A stretch of 43,982 nt of DNA, taken from a virus. Lineage: Duplodnaviria; Caudoviricetes. The notes under the pieces are model-generated. The model was not told where the DNA came from. It saw only the letters and a program-made list of their open reading frames with translations, and searched no databases. Both the position numbers and the translations under genes were made by a program. The stretch covers positions 1-43,982 of the IMG/VR virus record IMGVR_UViG_3300032233_000914; one strand, written 5' to 3'. Shown one piece after another: positions 1,474 to 37,253 of this stretch; within the stretch, counting starts at the first letter, position 1, and the number at the start of each line of letters is the position of its first letter.

Positions 1474-4400
1474 ATGTCAGATGTTTCTAGTGTTGATCAG
1501 CTTGAACAAGACCGTAATGCTGTAAGTAAAATTACTGCACAGTTTGGTATGGATAATCGTTTGGCGTGGCGTACGCGAATGATTGTTAATCAAAACCCGT
1601 ATATGGCTAATCGCCCTGAAGCAGTTTTAAATCTTGCTCAAATGGCATTATCTGATAACGATTTATTAGCAAATGTTGGCCAAATGTACGGTATGGAAAA
1701 TGCCTCAAACATGGCTGACGATCTTAAAAATTATTCACCTTCAATACAAAGATCTATTTATAGTTCATTAACTCCAGCACAACAAGGAACTCTTGTTCAA
1801 ATGGGTTATGAAATTCCTAAATCTGATTTAAATAATTCGTCTTGGTTTGACGAAGTTTTAGGCGGTGTAGCTAAACCAGTTGGTGCTGTTATTGGTGGTG
1901 TTGGTAAACCACTAATGAAAGTTGTTAGTCCAGCATTACAATTAATAGATACAGTTTCAGATACGGTCATGTTTAGACCATATCGGACCATTCGACAGTT
2001 AGATGATCCAATACAAATTCTTGGTTTGGGTGCCGCTGTTGCTGGTGGTGTTGCTGCTGTAGCGTTAGCACCAGCAACATTTGGCGCAAGTTTAGGTACG
2101 TTGGGAACTTTGGCTATTGCAGGAGCAGGAGCCGCAGTAGGTGCTTCTGCTACTACTTTGGCAGCTCAAACTCTTATTGGTAACCCGCTTGATTGGACTA
2201 ATGCTTGGTCTCGTGCAGGTAATGGTGAACGTTTATTTAAAGATAGCGGTTTACAAAAAGCTGAAGATATTCTTGGTGATTCACGTCTTGTAAACTTGGC
2301 TGAACAATTTGCTTCAGAAATGGATGACTATTCTTTATTAGATATTGCGCGTGACGTTGCTGGAACGGACCAAGGTTTAAATCCTACTGCACAAGTTAAA
2401 GAAGTTATTCAAGTTGCATCAAAGTTTGCTGATGAGGGAACTGCTGAACATAAAAAACTTGTTAGTGGTTTAACAGAACTATTAGCAAGCCCGTTGTTTC
2501 AAGATGCTGTAAAAACACTTGTTCAAAGTAAAATTAGTATCGGTCGAGATGTTGCAGGTGTTATAGGTTTAGATCCTGATTCCGATGCTTACCGCTGGGT
2601 TTCTGGTGGTATTGATGCAGCAACTGTTATTGCTCTTGACCCATTCATTATTGCAGGTAAATTTGCTCATGGCTGGCAGTTTGCTCGTCGTGGTTTACAA
2701 TGGGCTGACGGTGCTGTTGCTGTTGAACGAGTACGTAAAGTTGCACAATTACCTGAAATGCAAAGAGTATTTAAAGAAGTAGCACGTGCTGTTAATGATG
2801 GCAATATTCGTCGTTTAGATCTTTATGCCCCTTGGATGAAACCAGCATTTGATGATTTACGACAGCAAAAATATCTTTTAGATGACTTGGCCGAAAGCGG
2901 AACTATTGCACGGCAACCCGATAAAGTATTTGATGAAAACGATGTTGTTGATTGGCTTGTTGGTCAAAACAACCTTAAATCAATTATGTCCGGAACTGGT
3001 ATTATTAAAGGTGCTGGCGAAGGAACATTGCGTGGGTTAAACAAAACTCAATATGCAATGCGTACTGCCAAAGGTACTGTTAAAGAATTTTTCCGTGGCG
3101 TTGATGAAGTTGCAGCAAAAAAACTTGGTCAAGGTAAAACGCTTGCCCAAAAAATATCTGTTCCCTCAATTGGTAATACAACACCATTGCAATTACAAAA
3201 AATTGCTGTAGACAACCCTTCTTTTTATGATGACCTCGTTCAAGATTTACCTGTTGAGTGGCAAACTAATCCACATTTAATTGATGCTCTTAACCCTAAA
3301 GCTTTTGAAACAGGAACATATTTTGCCAACATACCTGGTGTTAAATCATTAGGTGCTTTTGTAAACGCAATAACAAAAATGGTTCCAGGAAGATACGTTA
3401 AACTTGTTGGCGCTGAGTCAATGCAAGAGATAGAAAACTTTGTTGACCTTTTCCGTGTAGCAGCAGTACCTGATTCAGTTCGACACATTTGGAAAAAAAT
3501 TATTCTTGATGCCCCAGATGTTGGAACACGTTTAAACGCAATTAGTTCAATGTACCGAAGTTTTTTTGATGCAGCAGGATTAAAATTAAGTGACGATGTT
3601 GCCGAATGGGCAGACGATCTTCTTAAAGCAACTAAGCAGTCCTACTCTATTGGCCCTAATGGTCGTGCAGTTATTAACGGCACAGAAACAATGCGGGCAG
3701 TATTACCTTTTGCTGATAACGCTGTTGCTATAAGCATCCCAGATTTACAGTCAATACGTAAAGCCGCACGTCAAGGTTCAATTATGCGTGTTATGGCAGG
3801 CATTCCAGAATCAACACCAATTAAAGCTTTCCAAGATAAATATTGGAAACCAGCAGTTTTGCTTCGTTATGGTTTTGCTGTACGAAACGGCATGGAAGAT
3901 CTTGCTGGTTGGATTAGTCGTGCTGGTATCGGCTATATGGCTCAAGAGTTTGCTTCACGCAACTTAGCCAAACACGAACTTTTTGATGAAGCAGTAACAC
4001 TTGCACGACAAGGAATTAAAGTATCACCACAAGAAGAACAAGCATTGCTAAGAAATTTTGGCATTCCAGCACACATGCGTCCGGTTCAACGTATTGTTGA
4101 AAAGATTGGTGTGGCTGGAGACCCAGCTTTGCTTGGGCTTCAACATTACAACGATTGGTTATACGAAAAATTAGCTAACGGTTTTGGTTCTAAAACTTTG
4201 AATGGTTGGTTAAAGAAAATAGATGAACTTCCAACAGGAGGTTCTGGTTGGGCTGTTGGCGACAAATGGCTTGCTCCCGACACATTAAAAGCAAACTTTA
4301 ATAGCAATATAAAAGCATTGTTTTTAGGTAACCCATATTCAAGTCGTCGAATGATGATGGGTGGAGTTAACGTAGAACTTTTAGAATCAGCAAAAAGTTT

Positions 4401-7400
4401 CCAAAACATTTTTGGTAAATCGTTGATGGAAAAAATTGGTACTACTAATCTTCTTCCAGGACAAAGACCCATTACTGGAGAAGAGTTTTTCCAAGCACAA
4501 GTAGGACAAAAATCTAAACGAGGTACTGGCCGAATAGATTTTCTTCATGCTAATGGTGAACGAACTGTCGTTGCAGTAGGTGGTCCTAAATCTCGTTTGT
4601 TACAAGATGGTCATCATGCTGTTTTGGAAAGTGTTGCACGATTAACTGACGATGAGGCTGGGGCATTAGCTCTTGGTTATGTCCAAAAAGTTATTACAAA
4701 AGACATTTTAAAAGATATGTCAGAACAAGAAATACTTGATTTAGTTCTTGATTGGAAAATTCTTCTATCAACAATTGGATCTGATGAAATTGGCCAAGAC
4801 CTTTTTCAAATATATAGAGTGCTAAACGAATCTTTAGAAGAACCAGCCGTTGCTGCTAAAAGATTTCAAGCTTTAGTAAAACAATTTGAACTTAAAAATT
4901 CGCATTTTGTCCAACCTTTGATGGATCTTCAAAAGCAATTTGGTGGTTTGCGTGCTCCTACATGGGGTGATTTCCAAAATGTTTTTGGACCATGGCGCAA
5001 AGATACAAGACGAGTAGGAAAAGTACTTGATAAATTTCACGCACTACATATTAGAAATATGTCTGAAACTTCGCTTAAATGGACATTTGCAAATATTCAT
5101 TTAGATTACGTATCAAATGGTAGGCATTTAAGTCCAACAGAAATTGAACGATGGAAACAAGAAATAAATCGTGGCCTTCCAGCAACTAACGAATTTAATC
5201 AAATTGGTCCATTTTATGCTGACCGAGATACGGCTTTAGCTAGTGCTAAAAATGATTTGCTAGAAAAATTTAATCGTGGTGAAGGTAAGTATGGAGAACT
5301 AAACCAAAACCGTGAATTTATTCCAACAGTACCTGGTACTGAAGTCAGAGTAATGTTGTTCCCACGGCTAGGTACAGGCCCAATTGACCCAAAGTTTTTA
5401 CAAGGAACTTTAACTGATTCTTTAGGTAATATTGATTTAGATAATTTAGCTTTTAGTGTTTTTGGTTTAGATGTTGCAACTTTAAATTCGTCACAACTTA
5501 AAGCTTTGCAAGGTATTGGCGATCAAATTCTTAATTCAATTTTGACTCGCAATGAACTAGTTCTTGCTGGCATGAATGATGCTCAAATATTTAGATTACG
5601 AACATTAATTGATACTGCTTTTAAAAATGCTGGTTACCCAGGTATCCCAGATATTGCACGAGCACGTTTAATGGTTGGTGGCAATAGCGCATTGACTCAG
5701 GCATATCCTGATATTGCTGAACGTATTCACACATTAAAAACAGGACCAAGTGGAGCTGATCAAGTATCAGTTATTGGTTGGGATCAAAATGTTTATCCGT
5801 TGACACGAGATTACCTCGACACTGCTACAGCAAATATTGGAAACGAAACACTAGTAGAAACACTAATTACTGCCGTAAGAGATCGTGTTACTGCTGGCCG
5901 ACGAACAGTATTTCATGTTGCTGAAGATCAAACTTTGTATCGAAACCTTAACGGCAAAGCACTTCAAGTACCACCTGGAACAATTATTGATACAACTGAT
6001 ACATATTTCTTAGATACCAAATTAAGTAAACCAGTAGAGTTAGGAAATCAAAGATACATTAAATCTTCTGCTGTCAGCTTTGAAGGTAACGATGAAATTT
6101 TATGGTCAATTGTTTCACCTATTTCTTATGATCATGCTGAACTTGTTTCAGGTAAAATGCTTGAAGCTCCTAAAAATAGTACACCAGTATTTGTTGATGG
6201 AAAATATGTTGATGTGTCAACAGAATTTGATCGTCTAAGAACTTCGTCAGTACGAGATGTTTCTAAAACATCTGCTGGAATGCTTCCAGATTTTGAAATA
6301 GCAAAAGTATACGAACCAAAGTATACGAACGCTTGGGATCGTTTTGTTCAGTACGGATTCAATAATGTTATTGGATCTTCAATTGATGCTATTGCTCGTC
6401 GCCCAATGGCTTTCCACGCTTTTCACCAAGCACGATCACGTAACATTAAATCTGTTGAATGGTTATTCCGAGGTACGCAAGCCGAAGCAACATTAAACAG
6501 TCGTATTTCAATTCTTAACGGAAAAAAAGTATTTGCTACTGCCGGTCCTGCACAAATGCAAAAGTTTGGTGACGTTGGTCGTCTTGCAGGTGAAGCGCAT
6601 GCTGTTGAAGGTTTTAGACATTGGTCGGACCGTGAAGCATTTGCATATCTTAAGGGATTCTGGAATCATTCCGATCCACAGCAATTAGATAATTTAATGA
6701 ACCAAATAAAAGCTGGTGTTGCTAGAGGTTCTGAACAATTTAATGATGCACAAGCAAAAGCTTTAGTACGATGGTTTGAACGAAATAATGGTAACTTGGC
6801 TGTAACTTTGCCTCATGATGTTGACGCTTTTGATTTTGTAGATCATATTGACGCTTACTTTGGTGAAGGTTCAGCACTTTTAGGAAAACCTATTACACCA
6901 AATAAACTTTTGAATGGTGGTCCAAACGGACCAGCTATGGGACTTTATCGTGATTTAGAAATAGAAGATTGGGACGCAATTAAAAAAGCGGCAGAAGCAA
7001 AAAAACTTGCTTACACAAACGCCGAAGAATATGCTGCCGAATACGCAATCCGTGACATTATGCCATTTATTGACAGTCACGAATTCCGTTCACAATTTGC
7101 TGATTGGGCTAGAGGTTACCTGCCTTTCTGGTATGCACAAGAAAACTTTTTAAAACGTTGGGCAAAAACATTTACCCTTGACGGTGCTGCTGGAACATTT
7201 GCTCAAGCAAGAAAAATGCAATTAGCATTTACTGGTCTTAAAACTATGGGTGTTATTCGTGAGGATGCTCAGGGTAAAAGCCATTTTGTTTATCCAGGAT
7301 CTGATCTACTTATTGAAGCTGTATCAAAAATTCCTGGCCTTAACTTGTTGCCAGTTCAAGCAATGTTACAAAGTCCTGCTGATCGAATGATTCCTGGTTT

Positions 7401-8697
7401 TGAAAGCAATGTCGCTGCTGCTGGTGTCACTCCTTTGCTTGGTATGCCGTTAGAGTTTGTTCAAAGTTTGATGCCCGAAAGCCAAGGTATGCGTGACTTG
7501 CAACGTGCTTTAGTAGGCGACATGGCTACGACTCGTTCTATGTGGGACTATGTTGTGCCTGCTTCAGTTAAAAATAGTTTTAATGCTATTACTGCTTACG
7601 CTGGTATTAACGACAGTAAACCTAATGAAAAGATTGCTTCAGCAATGATGGCAGCAATGGCACAACTTGAAGCCGTTGATCAAGGTTTGCCTGATGATGC
7701 TACGCCTGGCCAAATTGATGATTATCTTCGTACCGTGCGTAATCATGCTCGTACTATTATGATAGCTCAAGCTTTGGCTGGATGGTTTACTCCTGGACCG
7801 GCTGTTGCTTTGCAAGTTAATGAGAATCAAACATCTATTTCTTGGTTGACTGATGGGGCTATTACTAACCCAGCAGAATTGTTGTCGTCTACTTACTATG
7901 AGTTGATTCAGGAACTTGGTATTGAAGAGGGAACAATTCGTTATTTAGAGTTGTATCCCAATAACCGTATTAACGATGTTGTTAATCCGCTTGCTTATAC
8001 TGTTGCAAAAAGTACTACTCGTTCTGGTGCGCCTTTGCCTTCAACTGAAGAAAGTATTAGTTTTTATTTTGATAACAAGAATTTGTTGGATCAATACCCT
8101 GAAGCTGGTGCATGGTTGTTGCCTGCTTCGGACAGTAAAGAAGATCGTACTAAGTATGCTTACGACAACGAAGTTATTGAAGGTTTAAGATTCTCGAAAA
8201 CTCCTGACGAATTTTTGACTGAACTAAAATTTAAAGAAGGCGCTAACCAATACTTTACGGCTCGCCAATCATATTTGGATCAATATGAAGCGTTGAGAGA
8301 TGCTGGTCAAAAAAGTAAAGCGGCAGCATTAAAAAATGCGTGGGATTCTGCGTCGGCTATGTTCCGAGCAGCTCATCCTGTTTTTAATGAGCGTCTTGTT
8401 AGTTCTGATGCTCGTACACGTAGGGCGCGGACTATAGATCAAATGAGATTGCTTATTAATGATCCTGAGGTTCCGCAGTCGCCACAGTTTAAAGGTTTGC
8501 GTATTCTTATGAATTCGTATGATTCTTATATGGTGAATAAAGGAAGTTTGGGTTTAAATAAATCTGCTCGTGGTAGGGCTACTTCTGAGGTTCTTAAACA
8601 ACAGTTTGAACAATGGACTTCTAATTTCTTGTTAGAATATCCTGAAATAAATACATTTTGGATGACGGTTCTCCGTCCAGAGACAGGACTTGACTAA
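1474..8697 (+). CDS. Very large internal virion / DNA-ejection protein (2407 aa)
   Basis: Size, position in a podovirus-like structural operon, a hydrophobic Gly/Ala-rich segment at about aa 180-235, and a C-terminal 'LPFWYAQENFLKRW' segment of the kind seen in ejection proteins. Function is inferred. Confidence 0.6.
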   Translation: MSDVSSVDQLEQDRNAVSKITAQFGMDNRLAWRTRMIVNQNPYMANRPEAVLNLAQMALSDNDLLANVGQMYGMENASNMADDLKNYSPSIQRSIYSSLTPAQQGTLVQMGYEIPKSDLNNSSWFDEVLGGVAKPVGAVIGGVGKPLMKVVSPALQLIDTVSDTVMFRPYRTIRQLDDPIQILGLGAAVAGGVAAVALAPATFGASLGTLGTLAIAGAGAAVGASATTLAAQTLIGNPLDWTNAWSRAGNGERLFKDSGLQKAEDILGDSRLVNLAEQFASEMDDYSLLDIARDVAGTDQGLNPTAQVKEVIQVASKFADEGTAEHKKLVSGLTELLASPLFQDAVKTLVQSKISIGRDVAGVIGLDPDSDAYRWVSGGIDAATVIALDPFIIAGKFAHGWQFARRGLQWADGAVAVERVRKVAQLPEMQRVFKEVARAVNDGNIRRLDLYAPWMKPAFDDLRQQKYLLDDLAESGTIARQPDKVFDENDVVDWLVGQNNLKSIMSGTGIIKGAGEGTLRGLNKTQYAMRTAKGTVKEFFRGVDEVAAKKLGQGKTLAQKISVPSIGNTTPLQLQKIAVDNPSFYDDLVQDLPVEWQTNPHLIDALNPKAFETGTYFANIPGVKSLGAFVNAITKMVPGRYVKLVGAESMQEIENFVDLFRVAAVPDSVRHIWKKIILDAPDVGTRLNAISSMYRSFFDAAGLKLSDDVAEWADDLLKATKQSYSIGPNGRAVINGTETMRAVLPFADNAVAISIPDLQSIRKAARQGSIMRVMAGIPESTPIKAFQDKYWKPAVLLRYGFAVRNGMEDLAGWISRAGIGYMAQEFASRNLAKHELFDEAVTLARQGIKVSPQEEQALLRNFGIPAHMRPVQRIVEKIGVAGDPALLGLQHYNDWLYEKLANGFGSKTLNGWLKKIDELPTGGSGWAVGDKWLAPDTLKANFNSNIKALFLGNPYSSRRMMMGGVNVELLESAKSFQNIFGKSLMEKIGTTNLLPGQRPITGEEFFQAQVGQKSKRGTGRIDFLHANGERTVVAVGGPKSRLLQDGHHAVLESVARLTDDEAGALALGYVQKVITKDILKDMSEQEILDLVLDWKILLSTIGSDEIGQDLFQIYRVLNESLEEPAVAAKRFQALVKQFELKNSHFVQPLMDLQKQFGGLRAPTWGDFQNVFGPWRKDTRRVGKVLDKFHALHIRNMSETSLKWTFANIHLDYVSNGRHLSPTEIERWKQEINRGLPATNEFNQIGPFYADRDTALASAKNDLLEKFNRGEGKYGELNQNREFIPTVPGTEVRVMLFPRLGTGPIDPKFLQGTLTDSLGNIDLDNLAFSVFGLDVATLNSSQLKALQGIGDQILNSILTRNELVLAGMNDAQIFRLRTLIDTAFKNAGYPGIPDIARARLMVGGNSALTQAYPDIAERIHTLKTGPSGADQVSVIGWDQNVYPLTRDYLDTATANIGNETLVETLITAVRDRVTAGRRTVFHVAEDQTLYRNLNGKALQVPPGTIIDTTDTYFLDTKLSKPVELGNQRYIKSSAVSFEGNDEILWSIVSPISYDHAELVSGKMLEAPKNSTPVFVDGKYVDVSTEFDRLRTSSVRDVSKTSAGMLPDFEIAKVYEPKYTNAWDRFVQYGFNNVIGSSIDAIARRPMAFHAFHQARSRNIKSVEWLFRGTQAEATLNSRISILNGKKVFATAGPAQMQKFGDVGRLAGEAHAVEGFRHWSDREAFAYLKGFWNHSDPQQLDNLMNQIKAGVARGSEQFNDAQAKALVRWFERNNGNLAVTLPHDVDAFDFVDHIDAYFGEGSALLGKPITPNKLLNGGPNGPAMGLYRDLEIEDWDAIKKAAEAKKLAYTNAEEYAAEYAIRDIMPFIDSHEFRSQFADWARGYLPFWYAQENFLKRWAKTFTLDGAAGTFAQARKMQLAFTGLKTMGVIREDAQGKSHFVYPGSDLLIEAVSKIPGLNLLPVQAMLQSPADRMIPGFESNVAAAGVTPLLGMPLEFVQSLMPESQGMRDLQRALVGDMATTRSMWDYVVPASVKNSFNAITAYAGINDSKPNEKIASAMMAAMAQLEAVDQGLPDDATPGQIDDYLRTVRNHARTIMIAQALAGWFTPGPAVALQVNENQTSISWLTDGAITNPAELLSSTYYELIQELGIEEGTIRYLELYPNNRINDVVNPLAYTVAKSTTRSGAPLPSTEESISFYFDNKNLLDQYPEAGAWLLPASDSKEDRTKYAYDNEVIEGLRFSKTPDEFLTELKFKEGANQYFTARQSYLDQYEALRDAGQKSKAAALKNAWDSASAMFRAAHPVFNERLVSSDARTRRARTIDQMRLLINDPEVPQSPQFKGLRILMNSYDSYMVNKGSLGLNKSARGRATSEVLKQQFEQWTSNFLLEYPEINTFWMTVLRPETGLD

Positions 8698-12126: not shown

Positions 12127-12414
12127 ATGGCTGCTAAGAAAATGACTCCTGCTCAAGCTCAAGCTTTGAAAGAAGCTGGCAAATTTTTTGGTGATTCTAA
12201 GTTAGGTAAGAAGCGTATTGCTGAGTTTAAGAAAACGCTTGCAGATGGTTATGCTGGTTTGACTGTTAATCCTCAAATTAAGCCTAAAAATTCTCAACCT
12301 TTAACTTCTGGTCAACGTGAAGCAAAACCTAAAACTACTCGTGTTAATCCTTTAACTTCTGGTCAACGTGAAGCAAAACCTAAAACTACTCGTCCGGGTC
12401 GTGGTGCACGATAA
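12127..12414 (+). CDS. Small basic protein with an internal 15-aa duplication
   Basis: PLTSGQREAKPKTTR occurs twice; Lys-rich. Confidence 0.7.
   Translation: MAAKKMTPAQAQALKEAGKFFGDSKLGKKRIAEFKKTLADGYAGLTVNPQIKPKNSQPLTSGQREAKPKTTRVNPLTSGQREAKPKTTRPGRGAR
12298..12393 (+). repeat. 45-bp perfect direct repeat x2 (period 51)
   Basis: cctttaacttctggtcaacgtgaagcaaaacctaaaactactcgt at 12298-12342 and 12349-12393. Confidence 0.95.
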
Positions 12415-33041: not shown

Positions 33042-33088
33042 AAAAAAAAAGAGAGGTAGGCTGGTGGTGGCTTTCGCCACCACCAGCC
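33042..33088 (-). terminator. Intrinsic terminator of the first early operon
   Basis: 13-bp perfect stem GGCTGGTGGTGGC-GAAA-GCCACCACCAGCC, followed on the - strand by a pyrimidine run and T9, directly after the stop at 33098. Confidence 0.85.
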
Positions 33089-33097
33089 TTTACTGAC

Positions 33098-34141
33098 TCA
33101 GAAGTCAGGTAGAGCAGGAACACCTGCTTTAGCCAACTCCTTTTCCTGCTCCTCATAGAGACGAGCCTCACGCTCATCAGCCGATTCTTCTAATCGCTGT
33201 GACTCCATTGAGTGACGGTAAAGAACCGACAACGCCTTGGCGATATCAGCCATCGTCTGTTGCGCTTCCTCTAAGTAGACGAAACCTTTGTACCACGAGT
33301 CAACATGACCCGCTGAAATTCGGTCAAAGTCAATGAAACTCATACCTTCGTACTTCGTTCCTTCACCACCAGCTCGAGTCGGCAAAGTGACTTTTTCACC
33401 ATTGAACTTGACGAACTCCGACTTGACCCGCATGATGGCGTAATTCCAACCATACTTGGCGTTCGTGTAACTGCCACCTGGTACTTCTACACACACTAGG
33501 TAGTCACAATCCGTAGACATAACACCATCGCTAGTCAATGGCAACCAGAACTTTGAGTACGCAACCGACTCAAACTCAACCAAAGACTTGCGTACTGGCC
33601 GACGCTTCTCAGAACCATCGTCGTTGATGATCGTTGACCAATGTGAAATTTGAGCCAACTGGATCATCGCCGACTTGGCTTTGAACATTTGATTTTTGAG
33701 TTGTGCAGGCGTGTAAGTACCACGTGATGAGAGAATTCGTTCACACAGTGACTCAACTGTAATGACTTGAGTTGTCTGCGCTTTGACAACGATCTCCAAC
33801 GCTTCCTCCACAGCCTCTAAACCACGATTTCGGCTGACAGGCTTTTCCTTGATGGTATTACCACTTTCTTTAGCTTCATCGCTAGTTTGCTCGATGACAA
33901 CTTCGGTAACTTCCTGAACTTTCTGACTCGCCTTCATGAATTCCTCCATAGGGATGTAAGTGATTTCACCAGTTGTGAAATCAACATTGACGTAACTGAG
34001 CAACGACTTCTCATCAAGAATCAACTGACCCGATGCAATCCCACGCTTCATCAGCGATTCCGAACGCTTCGCATTAGTGACTCTCGTTTCAACCATTTCA
34101 ACTAACTCGTCAATGGTCAATTTGATTTCTTTACGCTTCAT
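33098..34141 (-). CDS. Hypothetical early protein (347 aa)
   Basis: Long ORF with GGAGG RBS; no recognised motif; ends in LPDF. Confidence 0.8.
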   Translation of the reverse strand: MKRKEIKLTIDELVEMVETRVTNAKRSESLMKRGIASGQLILDEKSLLSYVNVDFTTGEITYIPMEEFMKASQKVQEVTEVVIEQTSDEAKESGNTIKEKPVSRNRGLEAVEEALEIVVKAQTTQVITVESLCERILSSRGTYTPAQLKNQMFKAKSAMIQLAQISHWSTIINDDGSEKRRPVRKSLVEFESVAYSKFWLPLTSDGVMSTDCDYLVCVEVPGGSYTNAKYGWNYAIMRVKSEFVKFNGEKVTLPTRAGGEGTKYEGMSFIDFDRISAGHVDSWYKGFVYLEEAQQTMADIAKALSVLYRHSMESQRLEESADEREARLYEEQEKELAKAGVPALPDF

Positions 34142-34861: not shown

Positions 34862-36026
34862 TTCTTTCTCCTCTCAAGCGGGAAGTCGGAACGACTTCCT
34901 CGCTCCGCAGGAAGGAGCAAACCCCTCCTCGGAAAAACTGAGGGCGACAACGGACGTAGAAATTTTTGGGTGATAGTGAATGAGGTCGTATCTGTCGTTT
35001 GTTATGTACGACCCTAAATAGCACCCAAAAATTTTGTGAGGCGGTCGAAAAAGGTTTTTTGGCATGGCCAAAGATCTAGAGCAAACGCCGCCCTTGCGTT
35101 TGCCTTGAGCGACGCCGTGGTCAAAAGCCTTTTTTGATCAACGACTGATCTCGTGGGCGGGGAAGTTATTTTCTTTTTACTGGAACTTCCTCGCCCACGT
35201 AGCCGTAACGCACAGTTTTTCAGGGGTTTGTGGGAGTGCGGTACGGGTTGCGCCGTAGCGCAACCCACCGATAGATTTTTTGACCGAGGATTTTTTTCGC
35301 AATCTTTTCCGCGAAAAAATAAATATTATCGGTCCTGCCTATGCGAGGAAACTTTAAAAAATCTTTACTTTCCCCTGCGGTGGTTTTCCGCTGGGGAAAG
35401 GGCGGTGGGCAGACGCCCGTGGCACCGCTACCCATCTTTTTCGAAAGTGCGGTTCTTTCGGAAAAGGGGCGATTTTGGGTGCGCATGAAAATCTTCTCTT
35501 ATGTCCTCAGGGATTTTCCGCGCACCCGAAAATCGTGGGGTGCTGAAGTTAGAGTCTGAAGGGCGGTCGGGCTAGCCCGACCCTTTCCCGACAGGGGAGG
35601 GAAAGGCGCAAATGATTCGCTTGCGAATCTGGAGAATAGGCGCTTGCGCCTTCCAAATTGCGCGCCCTGATTCTGCCGTTACTTTCGGATTGAGACGTTC
35701 TAGAGGCAATGCCCGTAGGCATTTGGAGGCTTCCGGGGGCGAGTGTTTTCTATGTTATGTTCGTCCTCGGGAGCCTCCAAACCATCAGTTGCCCTTGAGC
35801 GTCCCGAAAGTTTGGGGGTCACCACCCACGATTGAGAGAGGGTCTCAAAGGGTCAGGCCCGCGCAGCACCACCGACTGCCCTCTCCGTGGGAGGGGGGAC
35901 CCGAATCCCATCGCCCTGCATCCCTAAATATGTCGTGGCGCCCTAGCGCCCTGCGTTTTAGAACTCGCTTGCGAGAAGCCCTAGCGTGAAACGCTGTCGG
36001 CTCGAAGAGCTGACAAGCCCTTGTCC

Positions 36027-36407
36027 CTTGACCTTGCGCGCCCTTGATCTTTGCTCTTGACCTTTTGCCCGAGGAGGGAGAGCGCCCTTCTCTCCCGAGT
36101 CGGGACCTCGGGTTGTTAAGGGGGAGAGGACTCCCCCTTAAGGTCTGCCGAGGGAGCCGTTAGGCGAGCGAGGATAGGAGGTGGAGCGAAGCGACACTGA
36201 CAAGCGCCCTTGACCTTGGCGATGACCTGAGTAGGCGAAGCATGACGGCGACGAAGGAGCCGAATGCTGAAGGCTACGATGGCGAGCCGTGCCCTTGACC
36301 TTGACCTTCCGCGCCGAGCGAAGCGAGGCTGTACTTGACCTTGACCCCCGCAAGGGGGTCTAGCCGAGTCCCGAGCGAAGCGAGTGGTCGGCGTTTCTCT
36401 TGACCTT
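36027..36407 (+). repeat. Dispersed CTTGA(C/T)CTT-type short repeats (9 units)
   Basis: CTTGAY starts at 36027, 36043, 36056, 36209, 36294, 36300, 36334, 36340 and 36399. Confidence 0.85.
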
Positions 36408-36592
36408 AAGCCATTCGGAAGGCAAGTGCCCTTCTTGCCTGATGAATGGGCGGGGCGTTTCAGAGGGGGTCGCCACCCCCTCTGAGGTCTGGTGGTTGCT
36501 AGTGAGCCGTTAGGCGAGCGAAGGAAAACCCTGCGAGCGCAGCGAGCAAAAGCAGAGCGCAAGCGAGCGACAAACCAGCGAACGCAGTGAGC
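36154..36592 (+). repeat. Array of eight GA-stem-G(N)1-2A-stem-GA mini-hairpins
   Basis: GAGCGAAGCGA x3, GAGCCGTTAGGCGA x2, GAGCGCAGCGA, GAGCGCAAGCGA and GAACGCAGTGA. Confidence 0.85.
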
Positions 36593-37238
36593 CACTAAGC
36601 GACCAAAGGGAGCGCAATCCTTAGGGTACACACACCACACACACAAGCGTACAGAACAATAATGAAGCAAAGATAACAACCCTGCTCACACACCACCAAC
36701 CCACAGTCATGTGCTGTGTGATGCTGGTACGGTGGCAAGAGAGCATCGTTTGACCTGTGTTTTTGCGACCAGAGTCGCCAGTCTCGTGAAAGAAAGTCAA
36801 ACCGCTGGTGATCGCGCCTCTACCAAGCGCCCTTCTTGGTGGGCGCAGATCACCGATTCTGTATAATCAGATGTGCCAGCACCCCCATCGTATATATATC
36901 GTCCTGTCTATTTTATTATTTCTGTGACAGTGACATTGTTTCACTATTTAAAGACGGGTGACTCTAGTGTCAGGATATCCCCCCACCGTTTCAACATATC
37001 TGTTGTGGTGGCCGGAGATTGCAGGACGGAGAACCAGATTCATTTGTGACGTTTGGACGCTGCTCCCTCGCATCAAGTGCGAAGGTCTACCCACCTTTCG
37101 GTGTGTCATCCTCTGTCCCCGTGCAAGGGGGCGGGTCTGTTAGAAGCCTCTTCTGCTTCTTGTCGGTGATCAGTTGTGAGCGTTAGCTGTGGGGTCTGTC
37201 TGAAAAAAATTTTCTTTAGAGACGCTTCCTATGGGAGA

Positions 37239-37247
37239 TGGTATCAT
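37239..37247 (+). promoter_or_regulatory. Putative extended -10 promoter giving a leaderless mRNA
   Basis: TG-G-TATCAT, with 6 nt between it and the ATG at 37254. Confidence 0.5.
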
Positions 37248-37253
37248 AGGGGT

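Follow-up and report, generated by a model that had tools for sequence, protein, structure and literature searches.

The window considered here, that is, the whole stretch of 43,982 nucleotides (nt) analysed, is the complete record of a 44-kb WhiB-bearing podovirus in IMG/VR (IMGVR_UViG_3300032233_000914), with a terminal overlap of 123 nt. Besides WhiB, it encodes a ParB-like protein, SSB, a Cas4-like exonuclease, RusA, an SU10-type capsid protein and a terminase, whose best cultured matches with known hosts are the cluster BF (Streptomyces) phages, at 24-29% identity. The gene arms diverge, early genes leftward and late genes rightward, at a hypervariable non-coding island (34870-36630), which lies upstream of the early genes and is predicted to form the unique right end of the genome, in a layout like that of the cluster BF phages. 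Contigs X2-X4, from three lake/freshwater studies, overlap parts of this island and give it a lake-water context. In and beside the island, hairpins on the plus strand display the 7-nt loop YGCCCTT, and a structured element on the minus strand, here called E, lies at 36965-37126. Then, what could these hairpins and E be for? Here, we describe both, together with their recurrence in an unrelated phage group, and weigh the possibility that they belong to an RNA-primed origin of replication.

The original prediction, made from the letters alone, had placed the loop on four stems and a related CCTA loop on a fifth, and all five hairpins were located where it had put them, on the plus strand. Hairpin 1 (35081-35103, loop CGCCCTT) is the apex of a longer helix at 35062-35121. 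Hairpin 2 (36076-36096, loop CGCCCTT, stem GGGAGAG/CTCTCCC) extends to 36068-36104 via a GA-rich internal loop, and hairpin 3 (36420-36440, loop TGCCCTT) extends to 36411-36449 via tandem GA pairs; the inner part of the latter, GCAAG-TGCCCTT-CTTGC, is identical to that in locus L005 and in the second phage group described below. Hairpin 4 (36822-36840, loop CGCCCTT, stem ACCAAG/CTTGGT) is the apex of a helix at 36808-36853 and lies within the predicted direct terminal repeat. The GGCGC-CCTA-GCGCC hairpin (35937-35950) stands about 40 nt behind a plus-strand G-tract starting at 35893. DNA folding leaves the loop open in all four YGCCCTT hairpins. Calling the stems unrelated was too strong, since the stems at 36421 and 36822 have CAAG/CTTG in common and the segments 36073-36098 and 36417-36442 are 73% alike; that is, the stems are partly related.

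The enrichment of the motif is clear. Within 34870-36900, six hairpins have a 7-nt loop and a perfect stem of at least 6 bp; four of them share YGCCCTT, while in none of 3,000 dinucleotide shuffles did any 6-mer occur in more than one such loop. YGCCCTT occurs eight times on the plus strand of the island and twice on the minus strand, compared with a single plus-strand copy in the remaining genome and with a mean of 0.6 (maximum 5) per shuffle. The shorter GCCCT, which had been put at about 15 plus-strand copies, was counted 15 times on that strand vs. three times on the other (34870-37180). It should be noted that only four of the eight plus-strand YGCCCTT copies are loops; the other four are GCCCTTGA in unpaired linkers beside TTGACC repeats. 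These linkers, made of YGCCCTTGAC / TTGACCTT repeats, lie between the hairpins (36023-36407, plus strand), and the same repeats trail the loop hairpin in the second phage group. TTGACC is at least as over-represented as the loop motif itself, with ten copies on the plus strand and one on the minus strand where 0.7 are expected.

The analysis covered 119 IMG/VR loci carrying CAAGYGCCCTTCTTG, in 92 of which the loop match lies inside an open reading frame of at least 100 amino acids. By rough estimate, both the raw count of CAAGYGCCCTTCTTG (about 130 stretches) and that of the E pattern (about 930) are near chance, and only profile- or flank-confirmed loci were counted. Twenty-nine of the 119 loci belong to an unrelated group, namely WhiB phages of about 15 kb whose terminase is HK97-type and fused to HNH. 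In these phages, the loop sits on a 9-bp stem that is followed by TTGACCT repeats, and it is located 48-49 nt behind a G-tract in 29/29. For the analysis of covariation, ten distinct 35-nt modules were used out of 12 found, the two 33-nt modules being excluded: 8 of the 12 stem pairs vary on both sides, all 120 of 120 cells are paired, and the loop reads YGCMYTT, with G16, C17, T20 and T21 invariant on freely changing stems. The covariation score was reached by none of 500 shuffles, and slid controls were 31-53% paired. In locus L001, a relative of the window, hairpin 1 is likewise retained, with a compensated stem and the loop CGCCCTC. The proposal that the loop is conserved while its stems vary, and that it is read as a single strand, is thus supported, and the hairpin loops are a real, conserved, strand-specific structural signal. 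In three of the 15-kb genomes (G001-G003, loci L342-L344), a distance of about 350 nt separates the hairpin, which is within the region of the HNH-terminase frame, from the end of the contig. HNH and the terminase large subunit form a single open frame in these phages and the contigs end within it, so the genome end probably falls within the fused gene.

E is the second feature that the two phage groups, whose terminases are unrelated, nevertheless have in common. In the window it is a covarying structured element of about 160 nt on the minus strand, with a GNRA hairpin, ended by a G-tract that runs leftwards from 36984; it was delimited by profile, alignment, fold and covariance model, and the model that gives 36965-37126 includes the window sequence. 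An nhmmer profile built from the 15-kb group only matches the minus strand of the window at 37106-37028 (E-value 1.4e-6), and it also matches E in 7/7 close relatives covering it, plus L011. Of the predicted pairs, 17/50 and 9/24 vary on both sides, the G-tract is invariant across 26 aligned sequences, and the first hairpin has a GNRA loop in 80/82 by hand count. The link to distant E-like sequences consists of weak matches (L017, E-value 1.4e-5; L032, 7.9e-5; L035 and L036 not significant), and a profile of the distant sequences fails to match the window.

Independently of the loop, IMG/VR was scanned for the core of E, and 120 loci were sampled from an estimated 930 stretches. By profile, 59 of the 120 are true E; since this is about half of the sampled pattern matches, E is common. 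Among the 55 E loci with at least 200 nt downstream, 15 have a looped YGCCCTY and 20 have any YG-NNN-TY loop, compared with 0/59 and 0/59 for the non-E loci; the loop-bearing E loci are those nearest to the training set. The hexamer TTGACY occurs 54 times in sense vs. once in antisense at E loci, and 7 vs. 11 times at the non-E loci used for comparison. Relative to the late operon, E has the sense orientation in one of the two groups and the antisense orientation in the other, and therefore does not serve as a leader of the late mRNA. Neither the window nor 19 loci yielded a relevant Rfam match or tRNA when scanned. No description of the loop or of E was found in the literature searched, whose coverage excludes most subscription journals. 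E had no match in six supplements of PMC10690425 (files 1, 2 and 4 left out), and it could be among the ten thousand unnamed candidates of that study, and a term search of 10.64898/2026.09.15.751765 gave nothing relevant. In summary, E is widespread, uncatalogued and RNA-like. Overlapping divergent extended -10-like boxes, read from the sequence against the familiar consensus, are located at 37238-37247 and are candidate promoters for E (minus strand) and for the late genes (plus strand); the promoter scan did not pick them up. A sigma-70 scan returned five sites vs. 3.6 expected, and the promoter scans gave no strong plus-strand promoter in the window island. The loop itself was considered as a minus-strand -10 box and rejected, there being no conserved -35 at the right distance.

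GNRA tetraloops mark RNA, while c(GNA)g triloops and tandem-GA closures are motifs that are stable in DNA. Within E, 74 distinct loci contain 92 GNRA tetraloops in sense vs. none in antisense, and four GNA triloops. In the 150 nt behind the G-tract of the same loci, there are 20 GNA triloops in sense vs. two in antisense, and three GNRA tetraloops. That is, a switch from RNA-type to DNA-type loops is located at the G-tract. In the window (34870-37250), the plus strand has ten c(GNA)g triloops vs. two on the minus strand, and 16 tandem-GA closures vs. two, whereas the other 41.6 kb contain 14 GNA triloops on the plus and 21 on the minus strand. Judged by these counts, the GNA-triloop and tandem-GA hairpins of the GAGCGAAGCGAG type (36151-36606, plus strand) are structures of the single-stranded DNA (ssDNA) type. 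A related vocabulary, GAGCGAAGCG with TTGAYC, is widespread in bacteria (Pseudomonas and others) and in phage intergenic regions, where looped YGCCCTY occurs in 0/146 loci. For example, similar modules are found in the intergenic DNA of L201, L216 and L195, and in an unrelated phage (L184, 2440-2525) a TTGACA/TATAAT promoter at a divergent junction is followed immediately by the 18-nt tandem-GA hairpin of the window. In addition, L045 and L047 have 26 and 64 copies of CCTTGA, each with a distant BppU-like gene; these copies are probably collagen-like tail repeats.

Phages with 99% identical terminases have largely different islands, assembled from shared modules. For example, X3 and X4 carry other letters in place of 35405-35546. 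The hairpin GGTCGG-TGCCCTY-CCGACC is present in L003 (identical to L023 here) and L010; in the slot of hairpin 4, L005 has GCAAG-TGCCCTT-CTTGC and L010 has the variants TGCTCTT and TGACCTT. The CCTA hairpin is kept in L007, and its loop is altered in L001. Hairpins 2 and 3 have no homologous stretch among the fetched loci, none of which covers them. The TTGACC repeats are replaced in other islands by tandem ATCGGTTA, and TTTTAAGG or TTTTGATC, repeats (L003 6310-6360, L010 6065-6090, L183 48-75). With the island and E as BLAST queries, cultured phages and plasmids gave chance-level matches only, and a metagenome scan returned one locus.

The position of these features relative to the genome ends also deserves attention. 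By analogy with the BF phages, whose terminal repeats are 253-276 bp long, AC-rich and begin past GTACA, with a non-coding right end of 1.4-1.55 kb, we place a direct terminal repeat of about 245 bp at about 36631-36875 (plus strand), next to the unique right end; the contigs themselves cannot show ends. The predicted repeat starts past GTACA (at 36626), is AC-rich in its 5' half and ends at a family-wide GATGTGCC motif, 244 bp from GTACA. Across eight islands this spacing is 214-309 bp, the motif is conserved among relatives with 51-99% terminase identity, and contigs L015, L026, L032 and L034 terminate within about 30 nt of it; a scan with GATGTGCC yielded no new relative. In a wider form, GATGTGCC...CATATA..CGTC is followed by GTGAC repeats (window 36870-36945; L019, L026, L027, L030, L035, L040) and is conserved across 44-67% GC; this region is a candidate repeat boundary or late promoter. 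A GTCAC palindrome is likewise found at the end of the cluster A RNA origins discussed below.

Regarding replication genes, no phage primase, helicase or polymerase was found among the window proteins, and none was recognised in the 15-kb genome G001. DnaB, Prim-Pol and Pol A were each detected in 0/5 complete genomes and Toprim in 0/6, while positive controls were detected. Conversely, in three BF genomes primase and DnaB are annotated, E is absent and the right ends are without plus-strand YGCCCTY. Of the usual hallmarks of origins, no DnaA box within one mismatch of the standard consensus occurs in 34870-36900 and no parS-like site in the island; the ParB-like gene is 9 kb away, and no ParA family was found among the window proteins. 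The minimum of the detrended GC skew is at 34930.

RNA-type loops up to the G-tract, DNA-type loops after it and the lack of recognised replication genes, taken together, lead us to read E as a primer RNA and the hairpins as ssDNA priming sites. Host RNA polymerase would transcribe the E RNA, its G-tract would hold an R-loop, and host Pol I would extend it; unpaired DNA near the genome end would then fold into the YGCCCTT hairpins, at which PriA, primase or RNA polymerase would prime the other strand. The hairpins would thus be landing sites for host priming proteins at a ColE1-like, host-dependent origin, a reading that we favour tentatively and with somewhat less than even confidence. Among the three mechanisms offered by the original prediction (a primase start signal, a nicking site and a protein sponge), the priming signal fits best, given that no phage primase, helicase or polymerase was found and that the distance to the G-tract is fixed in the second group; the other two fare worse, as discussed below. 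RNA-initiated origins exist in actinophages (PMC7157519), and PriA acts at hairpins and is present in all phyla (PMC5778457). A fork primed by E would, in the 15-kb group, displace the strand that carries the hairpin.

Several observations weigh against this origin, and orientation is its main weakness. In the window, the loops are on the plus strand and E is on the minus strand, so the loops are off the strand displaced by an E-primed fork, and this arrangement would require a second rightward primer, rolling circle or a 3' tail. Conservation of the loop, which the original prediction had named as a check, holds at close range only: looped YGCCCTY is present in 4/6 close islands, is missing in L007 and L183 (both partial), and occurs in 0/7 distant islands (L019, L027, L030, L035, L036, L037 and L040), many phages having other loops instead, such as TGTGTTT and TGGGTTT in L019. 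Similarly, 35/55 E loci are without a YG-NNN-TY loop and use other caps, and the most constant feature of the slot, an AA/GC internal loop (60/74 E loci), is lacking in the window island. The E loci are kin, and counts made over them overstate the number of independent events. The GNA triloops of L010 run the opposite way (none on the plus strand vs. three on the minus strand), and folding energies are much the same for either strand and for RNA or DNA. The GC-skew minimum is confounded by the coding strand, which explains it equally well, and many small phage proteins have no family, so that an unrecognised initiator is possible. Finally, E gave no nhmmer or covariance-model match in either direction to the RNA origins of the cluster A phages RedRock, Alma, Gladiator and LadyBird (Et2Brutus left out).

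One rule fits both groups, namely that the genome end nearest to the loops is the 3' end of the strand carrying them. It would accord with lagging-strand priming on a 3' tail, with rolling circle or with a second primer directed rightward, and also with end processing. A hint of a second rightward primer is the plus-strand G-tract at 35893, which is followed by the same order of hairpin, then TTGACC. More broadly, and with appreciably greater doubt, we suggest that an undescribed, widespread class of RNA-primed lytic origins may be common to unrelated podo- and siphoviruses of freshwater Actinobacteria, consisting of a GNRA-capped primer RNA of about 160 nt, a G-tract and modular ssDNA hairpins that load the host primosome. 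As part of the same doubtful proposal, the hairpin module of this class would comprise a YGCMYTT loop, an AA/GC internal loop and TTGACC repeats. The replication systems of mycobacteriophages are not well characterised, as stated in PMC7157519. The lytic replication of actinophages without replication genes is poorly understood, and the present finding points to a short origin cassette in two unrelated phage groups. If true, the proposed class would explain how phages without replication genes are copied and would provide the first natural primosome assembly sequence in Actinobacteria; if the cassette works as an origin, it is a new replicon for these bacteria.

Other explanations have to be weighed against this RNA-primed origin. 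T7-type transcription-coupled packaging is the model for one of them, genome-end processing, in which transcription toward the end and structured single strands would guide terminase loading or duplication of the terminal repeat. E points outward toward a nearby physical end in both groups, the loops obey the 3'-end rule, hairpin 4 is inside the predicted repeat, the hairpin of G001-G003 is near the contig end in the HNH-terminase frame region, and four contigs stop close to GATGTGCC. However, these stops may have arisen where assembly broke off at the border of the variable island, the genome ends of the BF phages are built alike but have neither E nor the loop, and the sharing of both by groups with unrelated terminases points to a host reader; we consider end processing unlikely. 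Alternatively, the island could be transcribed into stable non-coding RNAs whose loops titrate a host RNA-binding protein in the manner of CsrB, the hairpin of the 15-kb group then being in the leader of the HNH-terminase mRNA. The very abundant, stable and toxic RNAs made from the non-coding right ends of cluster A mycobacteriophages (PMC5712189) and of Rhodococcus phage WC1 (PMC10986025) provide a precedent. The G.T pairs in the stems suit RNA, and the L003 island has a canonical rightward TTGACA-18-TACACT promoter. Yet the plus strand of the window has ten GNA triloops and tandem GA pairs vs. two GNRA tetraloops, unlike E, and the window island has no strong promoter on that strand. Moreover, the RNAs of mycobacteriophage L5 are on the early-gene strand, which is the minus strand here, where the loop reads AAGGGCR, and the L5 right end has YGCCCTY once on each strand. 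An RNA sponge therefore seems improbable to us.

It is also conceivable that the loop has no sequence-specific reader, YG-NNN-TY being merely a favourable cap (a Y.Y mismatch and a G.T wobble closing a triloop) copied along with the TTGACC/GCCCTT repeats, so that any stable hairpin suffices. The variants TGCGGTT, TGGTATT, TGTGTTT, TGCTCTT, TGACCTT, CGCACTT and CGCATTT in equivalent places agree with this, as do the GNA and other caps accepted in the slot behind E and the many unrelated genomes with GAGCGAAGCG and TTGAYC linkers, none of whose 146 loci has the looped motif. The invariance of G16, C17, T20 and T21 in ten modules despite freely changing stems, and the identical 7-mer in two unrelated phage groups, tell against it, and we hold it to be decidedly unlikely. 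A further alternative is that the loop is a nick site for an HUH endonuclease or relaxase. It appears similar to the nic cores of MOB-Q and to CCCTT, the site of topoisomerase IB, and HUH substrates typically present a constant loop on a stem that varies. However, no HUH, relaxase or Rep family was found among the window proteins (PHROGs, Pfam, NCBIfam), eight copies in one region are ill-suited to a unique nick, and there is no significant match in plasmids, which makes nicking extremely improbable.

Some observations on the neighbouring genes are also worth recording. The large early gene beside the island (window 33098-34141, minus strand; L003 4753-5556, L010 4064-4894, L019 2977-3609) has no family and diverges fast, with 16-31% identity, among phages whose terminases are 86-99% identical. 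The first early protein (347 amino acids) has no family and no Atlas match. A strong terminator (33058-33089) ends this large early gene, whose product is a candidate host-takeover or anti-defence protein. At the left edge of the island in L001 there is a SLOG-family gene (L185 2908-3276), with a similar frame in L010 (5255-5683), and the early arm of the L015 phage carries an ArdC-like anti-restriction gene (L190 3480-4382). Elsewhere, a protein of 2,407 amino acids without family (window 1474-8697) has 30-36% identity in phages with 99% identical terminase and 65% in L014; it is likely an ejected virion protein swapped between close relatives. It was also considered as a virion RNA polymerase of the kind with N4-type hairpin promoters, for which there was no PDB match and, among 24 sequences, no acidic triad that is conserved. 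A 16-nt sequence occurs twice close to where a small late gene ends, at 12309 and 12360 (window 12309-12375).

How, then, do the hairpins and E compare with known systems? The CsrB/RsmZ sponges differ in that GGA-in-loop repeats were not found here, the loop being YGCCCTT (AAGGGCR on the minus strand), and there was no Rfam match. REP-like and ssi-like ssDNA hairpins (GAGCGAAGCG with TTGAYC) share the GNA and tandem-GA vocabulary, while they lack the looped YGCCCTY, and no transposase family was found in the window. The Pleft RNAs of L5, D29 and StarStuff (PMC5712189) also belong to a non-coding right end that is structured, varies and lies upstream of early genes running leftward, but they are on the early-gene strand, and the L5 right end has no GCGNAGC, no YGAGCG and no loop enrichment. 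The Beephvirinae (cluster BF) are alike in their convergent arms, non-coding right end of 1.4-1.55 kb and AC-rich terminal repeat past GTACA, and unlike in that they encode primase and DnaB, have TTGACA early promoters on the minus strand and are without E and the loop. On the strand of the early genes, their right ends (L192-L194) contain two or three promoters that combine TTGACA with an unusual -10 box, TG-n-GAGRGT.

Closer in kind are the RNA prophage origins of the cluster A parABS mycobacteriophages RedRock, Alma, Gladiator and LadyBird, as described in PMC7157519. These are likewise actinophage origins without RepA in a non-coding structured region, and by eye they share a late hairpin, then a G-run, a C/A-rich tail and a GTCAC motif. 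They have no looped YGCCCTY, lie in mid-genome beside parA and are not needed for lytic growth; E, in contrast, is at the genome end, and no ParA was detected here. E may work like the cluster A RNA origins, to which it is not assigned. For ColE1, the points of comparison are the G-tract and the position of the primosome assembly site (pas). Priming of ColE1-type origins by RNA II and loading of PriA at hairpins are stated in PMC7157519 and PMC5778457, respectively. The present phages differ from this type of origin in that they are lytic and have the element beside the genome end, with the hairpin about 50 nt from the G-tract; the window loops are antisense to E, and no antisense control RNA was identified. 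With ColE1-type origins they share the lack of a recognised initiator, an RNA-like structured element that ends in a hairpin and a G-tract and, in the 15-kb group, a hairpin that follows on the same strand, that is, a likeness of anatomy.

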